Origin: Candidatus Saccharimonadota bacterium
Lineage (GTDB): Bacteria > Patescibacteriota > Gracilibacteria > UBA1369 > 2-02-FULL-48-14
DNA length: 32,000 bases
NCBI GenBank assembly: GCA_965230905.1
Contig: OZ246396.1
Location: 120,001-152,000, forward strand
Direction: 5' to 3'
Position numbers and translations under genes: made by a program. The notes beneath the pieces are model-generated. The model saw only the letters and a list, made by a program, of their open reading frames with translations. It ran no database searches and was not told where the DNA came from. Positions 3 to 22,721 of the stretch are shown piece by piece; within the stretch, counting starts at the first letter, position 1; the number at the start of each line of letters is the position of its first letter.

Positions 3-3000
3 TCCATCAGCCGCATGAATAAAACCGGACTGAACAACTTGTATTCCGAAACGAACTTCAGCTCGTCCCTCAGCGGTGAATTGGTTTCTATTAGTGGTAG
101 TCCTTATGGGGACTATGGCGCCAAAGTCGAGAGTGGAGCTTATTTGGACTATGTCTTCAATTCCTCAGATGATTCGTGGACGGTCACCGATAAATCCGGC
201 ACGGTCTACACCTTTGGTTCAACGGCGGACAGCCGCCAAGACAATCCCTCGGATTCCACTGAAATCTATAAATGGATGCTGGAAGAAATTCGTGACACGA
301 ACGACAACTATCTGCGCTATGAGTACTTTAAAGAAAATGGCCAAATCTATCCCGAGAGCATCAGCTACACTGGGAACGGCGCCACCGATGGCATCTTCCT
401 CGTTGAATTCGGTCTGGAAAGTCGGAGTGATCCCAGTAGTTTTTACAGCACGGGTTTTGAAGTTCAAACCGATTATCGCGTCAGTGGCATTGAGGTTTCA
501 ATCGATGGGACTTTGCGAAAAAGTTATGGGCTCACTTATACAACTCCGGACAATACCACACGTTCACTCCTGAAGTCCGTCACCGAATCGGGGGTGAGTG
601 AAACGGGTGTTACTACCACCTTACCGGCCACTACTTTTGATTATGCTCAATCGAGTAAGGGCTGGAGCAGTGTCAACGGGTACACTATCCCCGTATATTT
701 TTACTTTTCTGGTGACCATTCCGATAAAGGAAATGATGTTGCAGATGTGAATGGCGATGGACTTTTGGATATTATAGACAGCGGTCTCTACTCAGGCTCT
801 ACCGGCGTTGACAGCGTTTACCTCAACAACGGCGATGGAAGTGGCTGGAGTGAAGACAGCAGCTATACAGTGGGAGTTCGTTTTTGGGACAACGGCAAAA
901 ATCAAATGCGAAACACTCGCATGACGGATATCAATGGAGACGGCTTTAGCGATATCCTTTATGGAGCCATGGACTCCACCACCGACGCGAGAAAAACTTA
1001 TATTTTTGATGAAGACACTTCCACCTGGGTTGAGGACAGCGCTTACTCACTGCCGATTCGCTTCAACGATGGATACCTTGATGATTTGGGCGTTCGTCTT
1101 TTGGATGTAAACGGTGATGGCTATTCAGATTATGTGCAATCGCTCATCGACAGTAGCGGCGCTCAGCAAAGCTTGTATCTTTTTGACCCAGAAACCCAAA
1201 CTTGGAACGTCGAGACCAGTTATTCCATTCCTGTCGCATTCAATGACCGGTCCAGTAATACTGACGAAGGAGTGAGTTTGGGAGAAGTGAATGGAGATGG
1301 CTTGGTGGATATCATCAAGTCCAGATACGATGGAAGCACTCAGCAAGCGGTTTATCTAAACAACGGCGATGGAACCGGTTGGACTCAAGATACCGGGTAT
1401 TCCATTCCCGTTTATTTCTGGGAAAGTAGTGGAATCCTGTCTACCGTCGCTCAACTGATGGACGTGGACGGTGATCGTTTGGCAGATATTGTGCACTCCG
1501 ATGCGAGCCATTCGGATGTTTACATAAACCGAGGGAATGGAACCGGATGGGCCAAAGATACCGCTTATACGGTACCTGTTGATTTTGCGCTCTCTTATGG
1601 CAGCCCTGAGGGGGTTCAAAGCATGGACGTGGATGGAGATAATTTTGTAGATTTTGTGCAATCTAAACAGAGTGGAGGCACCACTACTCAGCGGGTTTAT
1701 GTGAGCAATGCAAGTCCTGAGCTTTTGGAAACCGTACACTCTTACAAAGGTTCCACGACCACGGTCAGCTATTCCCCCTCTACCGAGTTCGATAATCCCA
1801 ATCTTCCCTTTGCCATGAACTTGGTGGACTCTATTACCGTAGACGACGGCCTGGGCGATAGTAGCACCACTACATTTGACTACGAAGGCGGCGCGTATCT
1901 TTATGAAGATGAGCTCAACCGACAATTCGCCGGCTTTTCTAGCATCACTAAGACGGAAGATGGTCGAGAGACCGAGACTTTTTATGAGCAAGACGATTTG
2001 GCTTTGCTCGGCCACGCTTATCAAAGCGATGTTTATGACGAGTCGGGGAATTTGTATACGCGCAGCATAGATACCTGGGCCAGCTCGGATCTGGGTTACG
2101 ACAATGATTTTGTATATAAAAGCAAAAGCGCCACCCTCACCTACGACGGCGGAAGCAGTCATCGCGACACCGGCACCGCTTATACCTACGATTCCAATGG
2201 GAACGTTAAGACCGTGATTAATTACGGAGAGGTCACCGCTAGTTTAGATGGAACTTTCACGGACGACACTACTCTCGACGAAAAAACCACGCTCACTTAC
2301 ACCTATGCGACTGATGGTAGCGGGGGTGAAATCCGTAATAAAGTAGCAGAAGAAAAAGTTACCAACAGCGCCGGCACCGTGATTAAAAAAACGCGCTACT
2401 TTTACGACAGCAATTCTTCTTACGCCACGGTGAGCACCGGGAATCTTTTCCGTCAGGCCGATTGGTACGACGCGACCAATGGCTGGTACAACAGCTACTA
2501 CACCTACAATAGTTACGGCCTTGTGGCCACCGCCAAAAACCGGCGCTGGTATACCACCAGTTTCACCTACGATGCCTACAATCTTTACCCGGCTGTAACG
2601 ACCAATCCAAAAACTTACACCGTGAGTACGGAGTATGACTATGCGACCGGCCAAATGACCAGCCGTACCGATGAAAATGGCATCACCAGTGAGTCTACTT
2701 ACGATGGCCTCGGGCGAGTGCTCACCGTTTCGGTTCCCGATCCCACCACGGGAGTTCTGACCACCCTTTCCACCACTAGCTACGATGACACTTCTGTGCC
2801 TAGCTCTGTGAGCACCACCAGCACGGTGGGCGGCGTCACCAGCGAAAGCGTGACTTACATCGATGGCTACGGCCGAACGGTTCAAAGCAATACTTTGGCG
2901 GAGGACGGACTCTACACCACGGTGGACACTTGGTACGATTCGCTTGGAAATGTGCAAACACAAAGCCTTCCCTACTCCACGTCCAGCAGTGCGTATGGCC

Positions 3001-5333
3001 GGGACGATTCTCAATATGGCGTCAGCACTAGTTACGATCCACTCAACCGCCCTCTCACGGTCACGGCGCCCACCGGCAGCACCAGCTACGACTATTCACA
3101 GTGGGAAAACACCGTCACGGATGCGAATGGAATTTCCAAAGTTTATAACTACGATGCGGCGGGACGTCTTCTCGAAGTTGAAGAGCAAAACGACGGCGCC
3201 ACTTACAACAGTGCGTACGAATACGATCCCCTCGGACAGCTTCTCACGCTCACCGATTCGCAAGGCAATGAACGCAATTTTGATTACGATTCCTTGGGCC
3301 GAAAAATCAGCCAGGAAGATCTGCACGATCCCACCGAAACTACGTTTGGAACGTGGAGATATACTTACGATGCCAACAATAATCTCCTCACTCAAACCGA
3401 CCCCAAGGGTCAAGTGATTACCTGGGCCTACGACCTTCTTGACCGTGTGTCTTACGAAGACTGGGACATGAGTACAACCGCACGGGATTTCAATTATCTC
3501 TACGACAGTGGAACTCGCGGCCGTATGAAAATTTACCGAGTAAATTCCAACAATCAAGACATCAGCGTCTACTACAATAGCTACGATTTCTTAGGAAATC
3601 CCACCAAGGAAAGTCATTCCTATAAGAATCCCGGACTCGCCACCTATTCAAACTACATTTTTTTGAAGACCTATGATTTGCTGAGCCGTGAGACCAAGGT
3701 CACCTACCCTTTCTCCGTGCTCACGGTGAACACCACCTACAACGCCACCGGAGCCATTGAAAAAATCACCCGCGGCACCAGCACGCTCAGCAATGTGATC
3801 AGCGATATTGATTACACGCCCGCCGGCCAAGTGAGCTCAATGACCTACGCGAACGGTGTGGTGACGACCAATAGCTACGACCCTGCCGAGTCTTACCGGC
3901 TCACCAACAAAACTACCACCGGCAGTTACGGTGGCGTGTCCGGAAACATTCAAAACCTCGCCTACAGCTACGACGCTGTCGGCAATATCACGGGCATCGC
4001 CGATACGTCCATCACGCCCACGGCTAAAACCATCACGTATACCTACGATGATTTGAACCGCTTGCTCAGCAGCGCGACCAGCGGCCTTTCCGCGGGCGAT
4101 TACACCGAGACTTATACTTACGACAGCGTCGGCAATCTGACTTACAAATCGAATGTGGGTACGCTTACGTATGCGGGTACAGGCGCCGCGGCCAATCCGC
4201 ATGCCGTGACCGACGTGGCGGGAACCGCTTACACCTACGATGCCAACGGAAACATGACCTCGGATGGTACGAACAGCTACACATGGGACAAACGGAATCG
4301 TATGACGGGTAGCGGAAGCTTGGCCTTCAGCTACAACGCGGACGGCAGTCGTTACCGCACCGCCGATTCCAGCAGCGGAACTACCGTGTACAACTATTAT
4401 CTTTCACCGTACGAAGAAATCCGTAACGGCGTAAAAACTTATTACATCTTCGCCGGCAGCCAACGTGTGGCTTCCTTGGTCGGCACCACCTACACCTACT
4501 ACCACAATGACCACCTAGGCGGCACGGCTTTAACAACAGACAGCACGGGTGCCGTTACCCAAGTCTACGATTACTACCCTTACGGCAGTGAGCTTATTAA
4601 TAATCAAATAGGAACCAGTGAAATCCACCACTCCTTCACGGACAAAGAACTCGAAGACGCCCTGGGCCTCTATTACTTCGAAGCGAGGTGGTACGACGGC
4701 GACATTGGACGCTTTGGCAGTCTGGATCCGGCGCAGTTAGATAACCGTGTGTTTAAACTCATCACCGATCCCCAGAGTTTGAATTTCTATGCGTATTCTA
4801 GGAATAATCCGATTAATCTTGTGGATCCGAGTGGGGAAGTGCCAGAATGGTTAAAAAATGCAGGCCAAAATGTTTTAAGAACTCTTGATACTGTTCCAGT
4901 GACAGGAGATATATCTGATGTTTATAGTGCCATTACTGGGACCACTTTATTTTCTCAAGAAGAATTAACACCTGAAGAAAGAGCCATGACTGCAATAGCA
5001 GGTTTGGTCATTGGAGCGACTGGAGGCCAAATAAGATTAGCTGATGATATAATCGAAACGGTTGAGAGTGCAGGGACGAAAGTGGGGACAAGAAATATAG
5101 ATGGAGGAACTACAAATGCGGATGAGATACTAAATGGAGCTGAAAATTGGCTAGGAAACGGGTATAAAGAAATAGATGAAGGAGTTTTCCGATCCGCGGA
5201 CGATAGTAGGCAGTTTAGAATGACGGACAACGATTTGACTGACCCAAAGCAAGGGCCTCATACTCACTTTGAATCAGTGGGACAAGGGGGTAGCGGAAGT
5301 GTAGAAAATTCACACGTTTATCTAGAAGACTAA
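3..5333 (+). CDS. RHS/YD-repeat polymorphic toxin, 5' end outside window (SpvB-like segment, FG-GAP-type repeats, TcdB-mid-like segment, YD repeats, RHS core, variable C-terminal toxin)
   Basis: The ORF is open to the window edge (no stop between nt 3 and the first ATG at 15). The translation has about seven D[VI]NGDG[LFY]xD FG-GAP-like units and dozens of YD-repeat units (e.g. YTYDANGNMTS, YEYDPLGQLLT). It also has the RHS core (YYHNDHLGGT, LYYFEARWYDGDIGRFGSLDP) and the boundary motif NPINLVDPSGE at nt 4806-4838. Confidence 0.92.
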   Translation, partial: SISRMNKTGLNNLYSETNFSSSLSGELVSISGSPYGDYGAKVESGAYLDYVFNSSDDSWTVTDKSGTVYTFGSTADSRQDNPSDSTEIYKWMLEEIRDTNDNYLRYEYFKENGQIYPESISYTGNGATDGIFLVEFGLESRSDPSSFYSTGFEVQTDYRVSGIEVSIDGTLRKSYGLTYTTPDNTTRSLLKSVTESGVSETGVTTTLPATTFDYAQSSKGWSSVNGYTIPVYFYFSGDHSDKGNDVADVNGDGLLDIIDSGLYSGSTGVDSVYLNNGDGSGWSEDSSYTVGVRFWDNGKNQMRNTRMTDINGDGFSDILYGAMDSTTDARKTYIFDEDTSTWVEDSAYSLPIRFNDGYLDDLGVRLLDVNGDGYSDYVQSLIDSSGAQQSLYLFDPETQTWNVETSYSIPVAFNDRSSNTDEGVSLGEVNGDGLVDIIKSRYDGSTQQAVYLNNGDGTGWTQDTGYSIPVYFWESSGILSTVAQLMDVDGDRLADIVHSDASHSDVYINRGNGTGWAKDTAYTVPVDFALSYGSPEGVQSMDVDGDNFVDFVQSKQSGGTTTQRVYVSNASPELLETVHSYKGSTTTVSYSPSTEFDNPNLPFAMNLVDSITVDDGLGDSSTTTFDYEGGAYLYEDELNRQFAGFSSITKTEDGRETETFYEQDDLALLGHAYQSDVYDESGNLYTRSIDTWASSDLGYDNDFVYKSKSATLTYDGGSSHRDTGTAYTYDSNGNVKTVINYGEVTASLDGTFTDDTTLDEKTTLTYTYATDGSGGEIRNKVAEEKVTNSAGTVIKKTRYFYDSNSSYATVSTGNLFRQADWYDATNGWYNSYYTYNSYGLVATAKNRRWYTTSFTYDAYNLYPAVTTNPKTYTVSTEYDYATGQMTSRTDENGITSESTYDGLGRVLTVSVPDPTTGVLTTLSTTSYDDTSVPSSVSTTSTVGGVTSESVTYIDGYGRTVQSNTLAEDGLYTTVDTWYDSLGNVQTQSLPYSTSSSAYGRDDSQYGVSTSYDPLNRPLTVTAPTGSTSYDYSQWENTVTDANGISKVYNYDAAGRLLEVEEQNDGATYNSAYEYDPLGQLLTLTDSQGNERNFDYDSLGRKISQEDLHDPTETTFGTWRYTYDANNNLLTQTDPKGQVITWAYDLLDRVSYEDWDMSTTARDFNYLYDSGTRGRMKIYRVNSNNQDISVYYNSYDFLGNPTKESHSYKNPGLATYSNYIFLKTYDLLSRETKVTYPFSVLTVNTTYNATGAIEKITRGTSTLSNVISDIDYTPAGQVSSMTYANGVVTTNSYDPAESYRLTNKTTTGSYGGVSGNIQNLAYSYDAVGNITGIADTSITPTAKTITYTYDDLNRLLSSATSGLSAGDYTETYTYDSVGNLTYKSNVGTLTYAGTGAAANPHAVTDVAGTAYTYDANGNMTSDGTNSYTWDKRNRMTGSGSLAFSYNADGSRYRTADSSSGTTVYNYYLSPYEEIRNGVKTYYIFAGSQRVASLVGTTYTYYHNDHLGGTALTTDSTGAVTQVYDYYPYGSELINNQIGTSEIHHSFTDKELEDALGLYYFEARWYDGDIGRFGSLDPAQLDNRVFKLITDPQSLNFYAYSRNNPINLVDPSGEVPEWLKNAGQNVLRTLDTVPVTGDISDVYSAITGTTLFSQEELTPEERAMTAIAGLVIGATGGQIRLADDIIETVESAGTKVGTRNIDGGTTNADEILNGAENWLGNGYKEIDEGVFRSADDSRQFRMTDNDLTDPKQGPHTHFESVGQGGSGSVENSHVYLED
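4839..5333 (+). other. Variable C-terminal toxin module of the RHS protein: PT-TG-like pre-toxin segment plus an unclassified toxin domain of about 100 aa
   Basis: The module starts right after DPSGE. LDTVPVTGDISDVYSAITGTTLFSQEELTPEERAMTAIAGLVIG resembles the pre-toxin TG module of polymorphic toxins. The tail (NADEILNGAENWLGNGYKEIDEGVFRSADDSRQFRMTDNDLTDPKQGPHTHFESVG) is not a family I can name. GC drops from about 57% (nt 4441-4500) to about 38% (nt 4861-4920) at this boundary. Confidence 0.7.
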
Positions 5334-5338
5334 TCCAT

Positions 5339-5695
5339 ATGAAGAAATATTTATTTACCGGGATCTCTAGAAGAAAAATTGTCCCCGTAAGACATTTTAT
5401 TGGTTTTCCACCTCAACTTAATAAATCATCTAAGAATGATGAAAGGAAAATGCTCCCCCTACCAAGCATTTTAATTATCGAGTGGGATGGAAAGAGGGCT
5501 TTTCTTTACCGTTTTTTGGATGAAGAAACTGCATGCGGAGACACGTGGCATCAAACACTCGAAGATGCATTCTCTCAAGTAGATTTTGAGTATCCAGGTA
5601 TGGCGGAAGGAGATTGGGAGGAAATCCCTGGAGATTTTAGCAATTCAATTGTCGATGCTGTCGACTATATCTTTAAAAAAAGATCCGATGAATAA
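5339..5695 (+). CDS. Putative cognate immunity protein (small acidic cytosolic protein)
   Basis: The ATG lies 5 nt after the toxin stop, in the same low-GC block. This is the canonical immunity position 3' of an RHS tip. Sequence includes ILIIEWDGKRAFLYRFLDEETACGDTWHQTLEDAFSQVDFEYPGMAEGDWEEIP. An alternative start is the Met at nt 5450. Confidence 0.6.
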   Translation: MKKYLFTGISRRKIVPVRHFIGFPPQLNKSSKNDERKMLPLPSILIIEWDGKRAFLYRFLDEETACGDTWHQTLEDAFSQVDFEYPGMAEGDWEEIPGDFSNSIVDAVDYIFKKRSDE

Positions 5696-6062
5696 AAAAC
5701 TCGATCTAATAGTCATAATTGCCATCACCTTTCTCATTTCGATTGCTGCAATAGTGGCGTTCAATATGGAGTTTGGTCCAACAAAAATAGCGGCACAACT
5801 CTCAAGGCTTGTCCTATTGGTTATATTTTCCTATTTTCTTTATCAAGAAAAGCAATGGGCCAGGTGGATCTTTGTGGTTATTAGTCTTTTAGCTGGAGCA
5901 GCCAGTAGTCTAGCTGTTTTAAGTCTGGTCGGTCTGGGTGGACCTGACTTCGGAGTCGCAATGCTTACTATTGGCACAATGGCTTTGTTTTATCTAAGTG
6001 CAGGAATCTACCTTGGCTTTATAAGAAAATGGAAGAAACCACAAACTGTCATCCAACGCTGA
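5688..6062 (+). CDS. Small integral membrane protein (about 4 TM helices), part of the toxin-tip cassette
   Basis: The ATG at 5688 overlaps the upstream stop by 8 nt (ATGAATAA), suggesting coupling. The hydrophobic segments are LIVIIAITFLISIAAIVAF, LVLLVIFSYFLY, WIFVVISLLAGAASSLAVLSLV and AMLTIGTMALFYLSAGIYLGF. The track ORF start at 5586 lies inside the upstream gene and is unlikely. Confidence 0.6.
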   Translation: MNKKLDLIVIIAITFLISIAAIVAFNMEFGPTKIAAQLSRLVLLVIFSYFLYQEKQWARWIFVVISLLAGAASSLAVLSLVGLGGPDFGVAMLTIGTMALFYLSAGIYLGFIRKWKKPQTVIQR

Positions 6063-6085
6063 CGACAGTAAATTCGTCCGGCGTG

Positions 6086-6114
6086 TAGACAAAAAGGCCT
6101 TTCGATCGTAGAAT
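6086..6114 (+). promoter_or_regulatory. Candidate sigma70-type promoter for the SLH protein gene
   Basis: TAGACA (6086-6091), then a 17-nt spacer, then TAGAAT (6109-6114), located 27 nt upstream of the ATG at 6141. Confidence 0.35.
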
Positions 6115-6140: not shown

Positions 6141-8009
6141 ATGAAAGCACTCACCCGTTTTATACTGCTAGCGTTTGTTTCTGTCCTTTCAATGCCAAGT
6201 ACATTCGCGGCGCAAAATGAGCTTACGGATGATGAACTGGCGGAATATTTAATCTTCGAAGCGGGCACCTGGTGGGACTATGTGAATTCCGTGGAATATG
6301 CGAAGGACTTCGATACATCCAGTATCAATTTTGCGGAAACTGAAGAGGAGGCAACGACCCGTATGGAGAGTCTGTCTTGCAATATCTTCCGTTGCTACAC
6401 CCTGAGTGCCGGGGAAATTTACATCGATTATTTCATCGATAACGGCAGTGTCTACATGAATAAGTACGATGGCTACGATACGAATGATTTGGAAGTGCTT
6501 TCACTGGAGGGCCTGAGCGTGAATCCCATCGGTGAAATACGGGGAGCACTTTTGGGCTATGAAAGCATGAGTGGTTACGCCAGCGATCTACAATGTGAAG
6601 TGGACGTGGGAACGTATGAATACAAGGGTTACCAAAACGACGCGCTCCAACATCTTTGCACCTACCTTATAGAGGATGTCCAGGGTGAGGAAACTCGGTT
6701 CGTAAATGTAGAATATTATTTAAAAAATTTGGGAAAGGTTTATACCGAAACCGAGTACTATCTCAACGGTGAATGGCAGGCGACCTACTCGGTTAGCTTA
6801 ACAGACACCAGTATCGACGTGGACGATTTAACGGATGACCAGAGTGGAAAAAATCTTGCTGAAACAAATTTGGATGAAGACGTTGAGCTCGCCTCCGACA
6901 ATGACGAACTTTTGGCTCAAAACATCGAAGATTATGTTGATTTTGACGACCATACCTGGTGGGAATATGAACTGAACACAACCAATTATTACGACGGAAG
7001 TTCCAGCGTCAGCCGAATGGTTGAGGGGAGTGAAAATGGCCTCGGCTTGGAAGGTTATGTAGAGGACAATATTTACTACTTGAGCGGCTACGACGGTGAG
7101 GGATTCGACGAACCCTACATTGGTTTTGATTTGAACGGCTATTCTCAAGATATTCGTGAGGATGCCTACCTCGCCCTTAGCATTGATGAAGAAACCTGGG
7201 GCGATGTGGAAAATGTAAGTATGGAGTGCGAGTATTCCCTGGATGAAAGCCGTGAAGTAGAAATGGACAACGGTGAAGCTTATGAAGACATGGCTATTTT
7301 TGAAGAGTGCAGCATGGAGTTTGAATTGGTGGAAAGCGGCGTGGTTATGGAGATGACTATAGAAAGCTACTACCTAAAGGGTCTTGGAAACACGTCGTTT
7401 GAAGCACGCGTCTACGCCAGCGGGTCTTTGCTCCTCCAAATAAGCCGTGAACTCATCAGCACCAGCTTGCTCGAAGACGCAACGTTCTCTGACGTAGACG
7501 TTGAGAACAAGAATTTTCCTGCCATCGATTACCTTTATGATGAAGAGGTGCTCGCGGGTTACGAAGACGGAAGCTTTAAACCGGAAAATACCGTGAACCG
7601 CGCCGAGCTCTTGAAGATTTTAGTGGAGGGCCAGGGCATCACCCCAGATGAAAACACCTATAAAAACTGCTTCCCGGACGTCACCACCGAGTGGTACGCC
7701 AAGTACGTTTGTTACGCTAAAGAAGAAGGTTGGGTGGGCGGTTATCCCGACGGCACTTTCCGTCCTGCCGATTCCGTGAACAAAGTGGAAGCTCTCAAAA
7801 TGCTCCTCAATTCGCAAGAAATCGCCACCGAGACCCCCGACGAAAAACCCTTCACCGATGTGGCCGTGGACGACTGGTTCGCTCCTTACGTGACCACCGC
7901 TCAAAAGCTCGAACTTCTCGAGGAAACTGGCTACTCCTTCAGCCCTGACTCCGACCGCAGCCGCGCCGGAATCGCGGAGGAGCTTTACCGCCTTTTGACG
8001 AGCCTGTAG
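6141..8009 (+). CDS. Secreted acidic cell-surface protein with duplicated N-terminal module and three C-terminal SLH domains
   Basis: Signal peptide MKALTRFILLAFVSVLSMPSTFA. There are three S-layer-homology units from about nt 7479 (FSDVDVENKNFPAIDYLYDEEVLAGYEDGSFKPENTVNRAELLKIL; FPDVTTEWYAKYVCYAKEEGWVGGYPDGTFRPADSVNKVEALKML; FTDVAVDDWFAPYVTTAQKLELL). The two N-terminal modules share TWW[DE]Y and YYLK[NG]LG motifs. Confidence 0.85.
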   Translation: MKALTRFILLAFVSVLSMPSTFAAQNELTDDELAEYLIFEAGTWWDYVNSVEYAKDFDTSSINFAETEEEATTRMESLSCNIFRCYTLSAGEIYIDYFIDNGSVYMNKYDGYDTNDLEVLSLEGLSVNPIGEIRGALLGYESMSGYASDLQCEVDVGTYEYKGYQNDALQHLCTYLIEDVQGEETRFVNVEYYLKNLGKVYTETEYYLNGEWQATYSVSLTDTSIDVDDLTDDQSGKNLAETNLDEDVELASDNDELLAQNIEDYVDFDDHTWWEYELNTTNYYDGSSSVSRMVEGSENGLGLEGYVEDNIYYLSGYDGEGFDEPYIGFDLNGYSQDIREDAYLALSIDEETWGDVENVSMECEYSLDESREVEMDNGEAYEDMAIFEECSMEFELVESGVVMEMTIESYYLKGLGNTSFEARVYASGSLLLQISRELISTSLLEDATFSDVDVENKNFPAIDYLYDEEVLAGYEDGSFKPENTVNRAELLKILVEGQGITPDENTYKNCFPDVTTEWYAKYVCYAKEEGWVGGYPDGTFRPADSVNKVEALKMLLNSQEIATETPDEKPFTDVAVDDWFAPYVTTAQKLELLEETGYSFSPDSDRSRAGIAEELYRLLTSL

Positions 8010-21813: not shown

Positions 21814-21888
21814 GCGGGTGTCGTATAGTGGCTATTACCACAGCCTTCCAAGCTGTTGAGAGGGGTTCGATTCCCCTCACCCGCTCCA
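21814..21888 (+). tRNA. tRNA-Gly (anticodon UCC), CCA encoded
   Basis: Folded by hand. Acceptor stem GCGGGTG/CACCCGC. D stem GTAT/TTAC with an AGTGGCTA loop. Anticodon stem ACAGC/GCTGT with loop CT-TCC-AA. T stem AGGGG/CCCCT with loop TTCGATT. Discriminator T, then CCA. Confidence 0.9.
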
Positions 21889-21890
21889 TT

Positions 21891-21924
21891 AAAAAACGGT
21901 GGCCCAAAGTGGCCAGCGGTTTTT
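21891..21924 (+). terminator. Imperfect hairpin with T-run after tRNA-Gly
   Basis: AAAAAACGGTGGCC-CAAAGT-GGCCAGCGGTTTTT. The core is a 5-bp GC stem, with an extended imperfect stem that ends in T5. Confidence 0.35.
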
Positions 21925-21931
21925 AACCGTA

Positions 21932-22080
21932 GTTGAAGGAGGGGAAGAGAACCCTCTCGCGCAAGCGAGTGGGTTCAGAAGCTCGAGCGAAGTGAGTGAA
22001 ATCTGTGCACGTGCACAGATTTCCGAACGTGCGATGAGCGCATTCAAGCGAAGCGCAGAATATTCCCCTCACCCGCTCCA
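21932..22080 (+). repeat. Partial second copy of the tRNA-Gly 3' portion, interrupted in the T loop by a 117-nt hairpin-rich insert
   Basis: GTTGAAGGAGGGG (21932-21944) matches tRNA GTTGAGAGGGG. ATTCCCCTCACCCGCTCCA (22062-22080) is a 19/19 match to tRNA nt 21870-21888. Between them (21945-22061) the TTCG of the T loop is replaced by 117 nt. Confidence 0.8.
21998..22023. promoter_or_regulatory. 26-nt perfect palindrome GAAATCTGTGCAC|GTGCACAGATTTC (CACGTG centre), 144 nt upstream of the first Cys/His-motif paralogue
   Basis: Read directly from the sequence. It is related to the palindrome at 24908-24929. Confidence 0.6.
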
Positions 22081-22166: not shown

Positions 22167-22721
22167 ATGCAAGTCCCTCGTGAACTTAGCCATTTCCGCC
22201 CCTACTTTGGAGAAAAATGCACAGGCGAAGAGCGGCATCTCGTTTCTTTGCTAGGAAGTACATTTTCAGACCTCCAAGCTTTTATGGATCATCTAAGAAA
22301 AATTGATGTCCATCCTTGCGCTAAAATGCATGAGAACCCAAACGGGGAAATTCACCAAAATCGTTGCCCTGTTCGTGCTATGAACGCTTGCTGTGCGCAT
22401 CAGCAAGAATGGCAATTGGAGGGCGATCGTGCAGTATGGCATTTGCTGGATGGGGCTATCGTACTTGCTTATCATTTTCATCTGCTTTCTCTACAAGAAC
22501 GTCGCACCCTAGAAGTCAGAAAGTCTGTGGCTACGGGCACTCTTGTAGCAACAGATCTGAAAGCTTCGATTCATTATTTCAATGTTAGTGGACCAAATGA
22601 AGCTCCCGTGACTAACGCATCTATAAGAACTACAGAGCTAGCGGCAGGTCGAGAACTTTTAGCCATTCGAGATGAACTGCTGGTGTTATTTGAGGGTGAA
22701 GTCTCAAAATATAGACTCTAG
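22167..22721 (+). CDS. Uncharacterised protein, paralogue 1 of a Cys/His-motif family (CxKxHE ... CPx5ACxH) with conserved C-terminal LAIRDEL helix
   Basis: Motifs PCAKMHEN, RCPVRAMNACCAH and IRTTELAAGRELLAIRDELLVLFEG align with SCGKAHEA, ECPRWSNNAACGH and IRAQETALGKQVLAIRDELVGLLE of ORF 25219-25689. Confidence 0.7.
   Translation: MQVPRELSHFRPYFGEKCTGEERHLVSLLGSTFSDLQAFMDHLRKIDVHPCAKMHENPNGEIHQNRCPVRAMNACCAHQQEWQLEGDRAVWHLLDGAIVLAYHFHLLSLQERRTLEVRKSVATGTLVATDLKASIHYFNVSGPNEAPVTNASIRTTELAAGRELLAIRDELLVLFEGEVSKYRL

Follow-up and report, generated by a model that had tools for sequence, protein, structure and literature searches.

Downstream of the single tRNA gene in a 32-kb stretch of contig OZ246396.1 from a Candidatus Saccharimonadota bacterium (positions 120,001 to 152,000 of the contig, hereafter the window) lies a short hairpin-rich unit that ends in a copy of the 3′ end of that gene, a tRNA-Gly(UCC). 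Neither an artefact nor a plain scar, the locus carries a diverged variant of the RtT kind (the repeat of the Escherichia coli tyrT-tyrV operon), present as one copy and linked to tRNA-Gly, in an uncultured groundwater bacterium; Hainich groundwater samples yielded identical contigs. On balance, we lean towards reading the locus as a diverged RtT-family module that was inserted as DNA at the tRNA-Gly gene's 3′ end. Family placement and insertion status are reasonably supported; how the module was inserted, and any function that it has, we infer.

The last 19 nt of the tRNA gene, ATTCCCCTCACCCGCTCCA, occur exactly twice in the window, where shuffled sequence gives an expectation of 0.01 matches. 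As the sequence-only reading, an earlier annotation made without database searches, had pointed out, the second copy is identical at 19/19 positions, follows a 117-nt insert (21945-22061) and has no 5′ tRNA half, ARAGORN and Rfam detecting only the intact gene. Neither the 19-mer nor the palindrome within the insert has a further copy in the 32 kb, and the unit is single there.

Evidence for insertion comes from related contigs, which were found through the upstream RNase HI gene because the ORF (open reading frame) downstream of the unit has no homologue but itself. The tRNA-Gly is identical in L122, L124 and L180-182 (L numbers denote the loci that we compared). In L180-182 (RNase HI 75% identical), AAGAAAACTAAGATGCTCCGTCAAGGGTATTTTTG, here called flankA, begins at once after the tRNA, and toxin-antitoxin genes come next; the ~530 nt downstream of the tRNA contain no second 19-mer. 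In L122 (RNase HI 81% identical), the tRNA and flankA are followed by a different RtT-like unit that ends in the same 19-mer. This native flank (AAGAAAACTAAGAT...) thus stands directly after the tRNA in L180-L182 and L122 and, in the window, after the second CCA, from 22081, which identifies 21889-22080 as a 192-bp insertion bounded by the 19-mer repeat. Because the 19-mer is repeated, the boundaries may equally be written as 21870-22061. The comparison of relatives that the earlier reading had proposed therefore yielded an empty site, in L180-182. The interior of the L122 unit is diverged from that of the window but homologous to it (z = 4.7; 0 of 2000 shuffles reach the score), and its palindrome, with the halves GAAAGTCTGCCC and GGGCAGACTTTC, occupies the same place and is perfect despite many sequence changes.

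The inserted module begins with a terminator-like hairpin (21889-21926) that occupies the 43-nt gap between the tRNA end and 21932. Within the unit, the GCAA-capped 11-bp hairpin, the 26-nt palindrome and the three AGCGA[AG] motifs (21965-21970, 21986-21991 and 22047-22052) noted from the sequence are all present, as is GCGAAGC (22048-22054). The piece GTTGAAGGAGGGG had been taken to repeat the variable loop and T stem directly; that alignment scores 15, against a shuffle mean of 12 and maximum of 20, and the piece is instead part of an inverted T arm. This arm, GAGGGGAAGAGAA-CCCTCTC, matches the tRNA reverse complement, GAGGGGAATCGAACCCCTCTC, at 18/21 positions (score 25; shuffle maximum 21), and its reverse-complemented T loop reads AAGAGAA where AATCGAA is expected. 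Nor did the insert replace the T loop, as had been proposed. The loop is split, its start (GGGTTCAGA) retained inside the insert and its part from A58 onward standing in the tail. The direct T-arm halves, GGGTTC.GA and ATTCCCC, lie on either side of a core of ~80 nt that is rich in GAA-loop mini-hairpins and holds the perfect palindrome. Since the inverted arm is able to pair with both halves, the closing stem and the first hairpin recur in all folds; the outer part of that hairpin pairs GAACCC of the inverted arm with GGGTTC of the direct T-stem copy.

In a permissive Rfam scan, RtT (RF00391) was the one non-tRNA family of interest, with model positions 1-130 aligned to 21924-22080; model and insert agree in GAGAACC at the 5′ end and in GCGAAGCG..GA.UA.UCC at the 3′ end. 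Rfam scans matched no intron or ribozyme family in the unit region, so that the ribozyme or intron once envisaged found no model; with one intact tRNA and no 5′ half, a split or permuted tRNA does not fit either. A core-only hidden Markov model (HMM), made from nine other members with no tRNA-derived parts, has a single match in the window (21971-22061, E = 0.0029), and a whole-unit covariance model (R1) to which the window did not contribute recovers 21937-22080 at full length as its sole match there (18.8 bits, E = 0.008 in 148 kb). Rfam RtT scores descend from E. coli (133-137 bits) through L072 (77.5) and L068 (47.3), both of which exceed the gathering threshold of 45, and L098 (36-39) to the window (19.6). 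The colinear core blocks, judged by eye, are all present and in order alongside these weak profile scores. From the profiles and the exact positional and architectural match, we consider it probable, with good confidence, that the window unit is a member of an RtT-like family, and the E. coli RtT repeat, which the sequence-only reading had not recognized, is its closest known relative.

The E. coli K-12 tyrT-tyrV locus carries four RtT copies, each closed by 19 nt of tRNA-Tyr sequence, A58 to CCA (the tail AATCCTTCCCCCACCACCA is present in all four), and a 171-nt small RNA, RttR, is annotated over one unit. In both genomes the unit shares the strand of a tRNA gene, stands 3′ of it and closes with 19 nt that exactly repeat this tRNA from A58 to CCA; its 5′ strand pairs with the 3′ strand of the T stem and the first acceptor bases, enclosing a multi-hairpin interior. 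By eye, the corresponding blocks run in the order (R)WGAGAAYC, a hairpin, GGTTC(G)A, GAGCG(A)AAGYGAG (also seen as TCGAGCG(A)AAGYGAG), a variable perfect hairpin, CCGAA and then GCGAAGCGNNGAATA directly ahead of the tail. The core elements held in common are GAGCGAAGYGAG, a perfect palindrome, CCGAA and GCGAAGCG..GAATA, the place of the 26-nt palindrome being taken in E. coli by CGTTGCC..GGCAACG with a 7-bp stem. The differences are also clear. The adjoining tRNA is Gly in the window and Tyr in E. coli, and the window host lies outside the proteobacteria: by RNase HI, Candidatus Gracilibacteria and Peregrinibacteria are the nearest named relatives, on which account a chlamydial origin, first suggested by an MFS+HEAT protein, was rejected. 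The window has a single copy rather than a tandem array, a terminator between tRNA and unit, a GCAA-capped extension of the first hairpin and ~12 extra nt before the last block. It also lacks an ATG or Tpr-like reading frame where E. coli Tpr starts (at the unit's ATGAGAA), and its 71-codon GTG ORF is in a different frame from E. coli Tpr. The classical 178-bp repeats of the tyrT-tyrV operon were reportedly described by Egan and Landy in 1978, Rossi et al. in 1981 and Bosl and Kersten in 1991. A search of the literature on RtT, rttR, the tyrT 178-bp repeats and the motif GAGCGAAGCGAG returned nothing relevant beyond one passing mention of rttR.

A scan of one genome per GTDB species, with a pattern drawn from two shared blocks, gave 60 loci. 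Many are chance matches in GC-rich coding DNA or other small repeats, and nine of the 60 lie directly 3′ of a tRNA gene on its strand, where the chance expectation is far below one. In Oceanospirillaceae and an Osedax symbiont, units follow tRNA-Ser(GCU, GGA); Ectothiorhodospiraceae have them after tRNA-Ser(CGA), Chitinophagaceae after tRNA-Ser(UGA) and tRNA-Leu(GAG), and an unclassified genome bin after tRNA-Pro(CGG). Each tail is the 3′ end of its own adjoining tRNA. A terminator usually sits between tRNA and unit in the tRNA-linked members (most of the non-enteric ones), and several of these loci hold two to three tandem units with the terminator included in the repeat. The inverted T arm occurs in the four units examined (18/21 positions in the window, 19/22 in E. 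coli, 17/18 in L068 and likewise in L072); the window, E. coli and L072 share the same two changes in the reverse-complemented T loop, giving ...GAGAA....

The tails themselves indicate how they arose. That of L069 contains CGA after the discriminator base, and those of the Chitinophagaceae are without CCA, matching their tRNA genes; together these features imply copying from genes, as DNA, and not from mature tRNA. A variant tail common to L094, L095 and L109, across species and tRNA-Ser isoacceptors, indicates that unit and tail travel together. In some lineages the tails have decayed, ending in TCA in L072 and bearing an insertion in L094. The suggestion that the insert might be a small element associated with T loops is thus supported, in that it belongs to a family of small units beside many tRNA genes. 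It is not unique, as a neutral scar had been expected to be, since related units occur at other tRNAs in other genomes, with none further in the window.

Table 1. Features of the tRNA-Gly locus and other ORFs of the window.
Positions	Strand	Feature	Basis
21814..21888	+	Intact tRNA-Gly(UCC), CCA encoded; last 19 nt (21870-21888) are repeat copy 1	ARAGORN; Rfam tRNA 59.4 bits
21889..21926	+	Terminator-like hairpin with A run and T run (bidirectional type); first part of the inserted module	Inverted repeat; terminator scan match on both strands; relatives carry flankA here instead
21889..22080	+	192-bp module: terminator, unit and 19-mer; not in the relatives' empty site	Alignment with L180-182 and L122
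21939..21958	+	Inverted T arm of tRNA-Gly, copied with part of the variable region and a single acceptor-stem base	18/21 against tRNA reverse complement
21949..21976	+	Hairpin of 11 pairs with one T-T mismatch and a GCAA cap	Sequence; minimum-energy folds
21971..21979	+	Direct T-stem 5′ strand and T-loop start, GGGTTCAGA (tRNA: GGGTTCGAT)	Sequence; other units have AAGGTTCGA or GGGTTCGA
21983..21996	+	Core block TCGAGCGAAGTGAG, fitting the family motif GAGCG(N)AAGYGAG	E. coli TCGAGCGAAAGCGAG is colinear; the core-only HMM aligns best here
21998..22023	.	Perfect 26-nt palindrome (13+13), GAAATCTGTGCAC then GTGCACAGATTTC	Position kept across the family, sequence variable
22023..22045	+	CCGAACG, then small hairpin TGCG-ATGAG-CGCA; counterpart of the CCCGAAGGG region in other units	Sequence; HMM alignment
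22046..22061	+	3′ core block AAGCGAAGCGCAGAAT, including the GCGAAGC mini-hairpin sequence; abuts the tRNA-derived tail	Matches E. coli GAGCGAAGCGACGAAT and the Rfam RtT consensus
22062..22080	+	Repeat copy 2, A58 to CCA, comprising the final 3 nt of the T loop, the 3′ strands of T stem and acceptor stem, the discriminator and CCA	19/19 identity
22081..22112	+	FlankA (AAGAAAACTAAGATACCCCGAATGTTTTTTTTG), which natively adjoins tRNA-Gly downstream and which the insertion has moved	First 14 nt identical to post-tRNA sequence in L122 and L180-182
22167..22721	+	Orphan 184-aa ORF	No homologue among 5.8 billion proteins
15..5333	+	1772-aa protein	SpvB, FG-GAP, RHS-repeat and PT-TG (pre-toxin) domains
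5339..5695	+	118-aa ORF following the 1772-aa protein	No Pfam match

Several observations weigh against placing the window in this family and against insertion as the explanation. All of the profile scores of the window are weak: the Rfam match lies under the gathering threshold (E = 0.11 when 211 nt are searched and 1 for 2 kb), the core HMM match is not significant at a search size of 1.2 Mb, and the profile members were collected with a pattern designed partly from the window, which somewhat favours it. The L122 unit goes undetected by covariance model R1, in which, since MAFFT had set the inner hairpins in different registers, the closing stem alone is modelled. Global alignment of the window core with the E. 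coli core is only modestly above shuffles (z = 3.2), which is why intermediates were sought. No recombinase was identified near the tRNA-linked units, the only integrase being a truncated ORF in L109, 3 kb from an orphan unit. A simple integrase model leaves the inverted T arm and the cross-phylum conservation of the core unexplained. The L122 unit stands after flankA, so that different events, or a tandem array since lost, are needed for the window and L122. Finally, the terminator between tRNA and unit makes transcription of the unit uncertain.

Nonetheless, tails copied from genes, tails that travel with their units, the empty site and the module-borne terminator together favour insertion at the DNA level. 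Recombination inside the 19-bp tRNA segment beginning at A58 of the T loop would have brought the module in as DNA, in the manner of tRNA-targeting integrative elements (PMC4383910). The incoming 19-mer and terminator would now complete the working tRNA gene, and the original 19-mer with its flank would have been pushed 192 bp downstream. An enzyme acting in trans, or host recombination, is invoked because Pfam scans of the 20 largest window ORFs revealed no integrase, transposase or recombinase. Exchange between repeats could then account for gain, loss and tandem amplification, and read-through transcripts may, by analogy with E. coli, yield a stable multi-hairpin RNA of the RtT type that ends at its own CCA. 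Both a single-stranded-DNA mechanism and a role for the RNA are possible.

The rival that we take most seriously, although we think it unlikely, places the RNA at the centre: the unit would be kept for its RNA, transcribed with the tRNA or by read-through from it and trimmed at its own CCA, with DNA turnover secondary. The 5′ region, antisense to the T arm and acceptor strand, might for instance serve as sensor, sponge or decoy by binding or mimicking the cognate tRNA. Without exception the unit shares the strand of its tRNA, in four lineages the inverted arm complements the local tRNA, and the palindrome stays perfect in the window and L122 despite sequence change. RttR is annotated in E. coli and, according to the summary of a preprint, is released by processing of the tyrT transcript and is possibly tied to the stringent response. 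As RNA, the region folds at -66.8 kcal/mol (z = -6.0 against shuffles), leaving the tail acceptor strand and CCA single-stranded, and minimum-energy folds of the window, E. coli and L072 units share an 8-bp closing stem and a like branch layout. Yet as DNA, too, the fold is well beyond that of shuffles (z = -5.7), and the opposite strand folds almost equally (z = -5.1), so that the structure reflects near-perfect palindromes and points to neither strand. RNAalifold finds almost no covariation beyond the closing stem among nine members. GCGAAGC, GCGAAAGC and CCGAAGG belong to the mini-hairpin DNA class, which is far stabler as DNA than as RNA and is known at single-strand priming sites (PMC13037366). 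The intrinsic terminator that precedes the unit here and in most non-enteric members, the absence of a promoter-like site ahead of the unit in the window, and the decay of the L072 and L094 tails also speak against an element kept for its transcript.

A more speculative reading, which we consider distinctly unlikely, is that RtT-like units are cross-phylum miniature mobile modules that home to the T loops of tRNA genes. The antisense T-arm copy, as RNA or as folded single-stranded DNA, would together with the mini-hairpin core direct insertion and rebuild the tRNA 3′ end, amounting to guided or structure-templated targeting by an element with no recombinase gene of its own.

Alternatively, the unit could be a single-stranded-DNA miniature transposable element, like hairpin-bearing derivatives of IS200/IS605 or REP, nested in the loop of the T-arm DNA hairpin so that the arms of the target now flank it. 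We regard this as improbable. In its favour are the direct T-arm halves on either side of the core, the two similar motifs at the core ends (GAGCGAAGYGAG and GCGAAGCG) plus CCGAA-type mini-hairpin sequences of the kind known from single-strand priming sites, and units that lie away from tRNAs (L104, L110 and, in Kofleriaceae, L061, L084 and L111). Many unrelated genomes and viral contigs also have short hairpins whose stems are arbitrary and whose loops contain GAGCGAAGCGAG (L054, L056, L059, L060, L081 and L116). The model leaves unexplained, however, the travelling terminator, the inverted T arm and an empty-site junction that falls at the tRNA 3′ end and not inside a second tRNA copy; no HUH transposase or partner gene was found, nor any second copy in the window. 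The units do share with REP/BIME, ERIC and Correia elements and with miniature inverted-repeat transposable elements (MITEs) a short, non-coding, hairpin-rich, sometimes tandem form and related motifs in many genomes. They differ in being tied to tRNA 3′ ends with tRNA-specific flanks and in apparently lacking the usual terminal inverted repeat and target-site duplication; the unit ends do pair in the closing stem, but that pairing is tRNA-derived, and dispersed MITE-like copies were not seen in the window. A further likeness is to the ssi (single-strand initiation) signals and mini-hairpin DNA of the phage G4 complementary-strand origin and RSF1010 ssiA (PMC13037366), with which the units share GCGAAGC (twice in many members), GCGAAAGC and CCGAAGG-type sequences and some three hairpins clustered over roughly 100 nt. 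The RtT-like units, unlike these signals, are chromosomal and lie at tRNA genes, and the resemblance is in motif only.

Beside these comparisons stand short hairpins or tandem units with arbitrary stems, carrying a near-invariant GAGCG(A/T/C)AGCGAG that is often followed by GAATA, in viral contigs (L054, L056 and L059) and in unrelated phyla (genomes L060, L081, L086, L088, L100 and L116); they may form a superfamily that includes the RtT core. Among units away from tRNAs, that of L110 in Luteimonas (6005-6097, +) follows the terminator of a protein gene and has a tRNA-3′-like tail with CCA (AAAGCCGCGGCCGTGCCA), with no tRNA within 8 kb. An orphan unit in L109 (3013-3148, -) has a tRNA-Ser-type tail and no inverted arm, likewise with no tRNA within 8 kb. 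Adjoining it are ~3 kb of AT-rich sequence and a tyrosine-integrase ORF that is truncated (6394-7131, +). The unit may mark the far end of an island now decayed, for which neither a left end nor a tRNA was found; the other unit-bearing loci have no related integrase.

Less probable again is a one-off att (attachment-site) scar, in which a prophage or island in tRNA-Gly lost nearly all of its DNA and left attL, 173 bp of junk and attR. Integrase-less cis-mobilisable remnants are known as CIMEs. The window locus shares with island attL/attR fragments a direct repeat of the tRNA 3′ end that starts from the T-loop sublocation, an empty site in relatives, and a tRNA restored by incoming DNA that brings its own terminator. 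The T loop is a known crossover sublocation for integration into tRNA genes, and a 3′ fragment in the same orientation, begun at a T-loop or anticodon-loop sublocation, is a criterion for recognizing such events (PMC4383910). Yet the repeats are only 173 bp apart, and what lies between them is non-random: it is not arbitrary island DNA but matches a cross-phylum family at other tRNAs, it holds inverted and direct T-arm pieces, and a homologous unit stands at the same tRNA in L122. Of the earlier proposal of an att scar carrying a tiny element, the insertion bounded by T-loop direct repeats therefore stands, but no integrase was found among the 20 largest window ORFs, and the sequence is no unique, neutral scar.

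Plainer duplications of the same tRNA-Gly end do exist, in metagenome contigs L129, L136, L164 and L170, and they count in favour of a scar. These copies of 19-25 nt lie 50-70 nt downstream, begin in or just before the T loop and have no RtT-like core; by their layout, they are probably ordinary att-type scars or very small remnants. Other searches for the unit were negative. A blastn search against plasmids and phages returned chance matches of 20-30 nt only, and the core HMM found no RtT-like core in any of the 45 viral-contig loci with the 19-mer, all fetched loci being searched. A metagenome scan for GGGTTC N{70,100} followed by the 19-mer, a pattern that we judge poorly suited, gave 51 matches, none RtT-like and nearly all an adjoining tRNA followed by an intact tRNA-Gly, with a few plain 3′-end duplications among them.

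What follows the tRNA-Gly gene differs in each relative, a pattern that also counts in favour of a scar: the orphan 184-aa ORF in the window, a Fic gene in L122, ParE/MazE in L180-182, and in L124 (RNase HI 79% identical) an element whose large serine recombinase gene abuts the tRNA. In L124/L125 this gene (1456-2928, +) meets the tRNA-Gly (2917-2991, -), with a LexA-like repressor nearby, and the arrangement looks like a prophage or element at the very end of the tRNA, without a long direct repeat. Short-read assemblies break inside or right after the tRNA-Gly in L120, L121, L123, L178 and L179, which fits repeat- or strain-level heterogeneity. Taken together, these arrangements mark the 3′ side of the tRNA-Gly as a hot spot where genes turn over repeatedly.

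A decayed tandem duplicate of tRNA-Gly that lost its 5′ half and gained an unrelated insertion is very improbable and already disfavoured, for although tandem tRNA genes are common and a faint trace of the anticodon stem and variable region (CAAGC..GAG.GGGTTC) possibly precedes the direct T-arm piece, it explains neither the inverted T arm and the family resemblance nor a native flank after the second copy and a new terminator after the first.

Elsewhere in the window, the 1772-aa protein near its start and the ORF that follows (Table 1) look, from domain content and order, like a polymorphic toxin and a candidate immunity gene.

Until now, RtT has stood as a curiosity, unexplained, of a single E. 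coli operon. The window locus is new but of this known yet unexplained kind, and the comparison suggests that one design stands after tRNA genes for Tyr, Ser, Leu, Pro and Gly, its hosts being Gammaproteobacteria, Bacteroidota and a bacterium from groundwater with candidate-phyla lineages as its nearest named relatives. It further suggests that the tail of each unit tracks its own tRNA, with a matching inverted T arm in the four units examined, and that the tRNA 3′ end gains and loses units as DNA. The units also constitute a class of tRNA-gene fragment that island-finding and tRNA-annotation tools could misread. The question of what RtT is becomes a testable comparative one, of which parts track the tRNA, which are fixed and what agent inserts them. 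Homing to T loops, if true, would also explain the 45-year-old tyrT repeats of E. coli.

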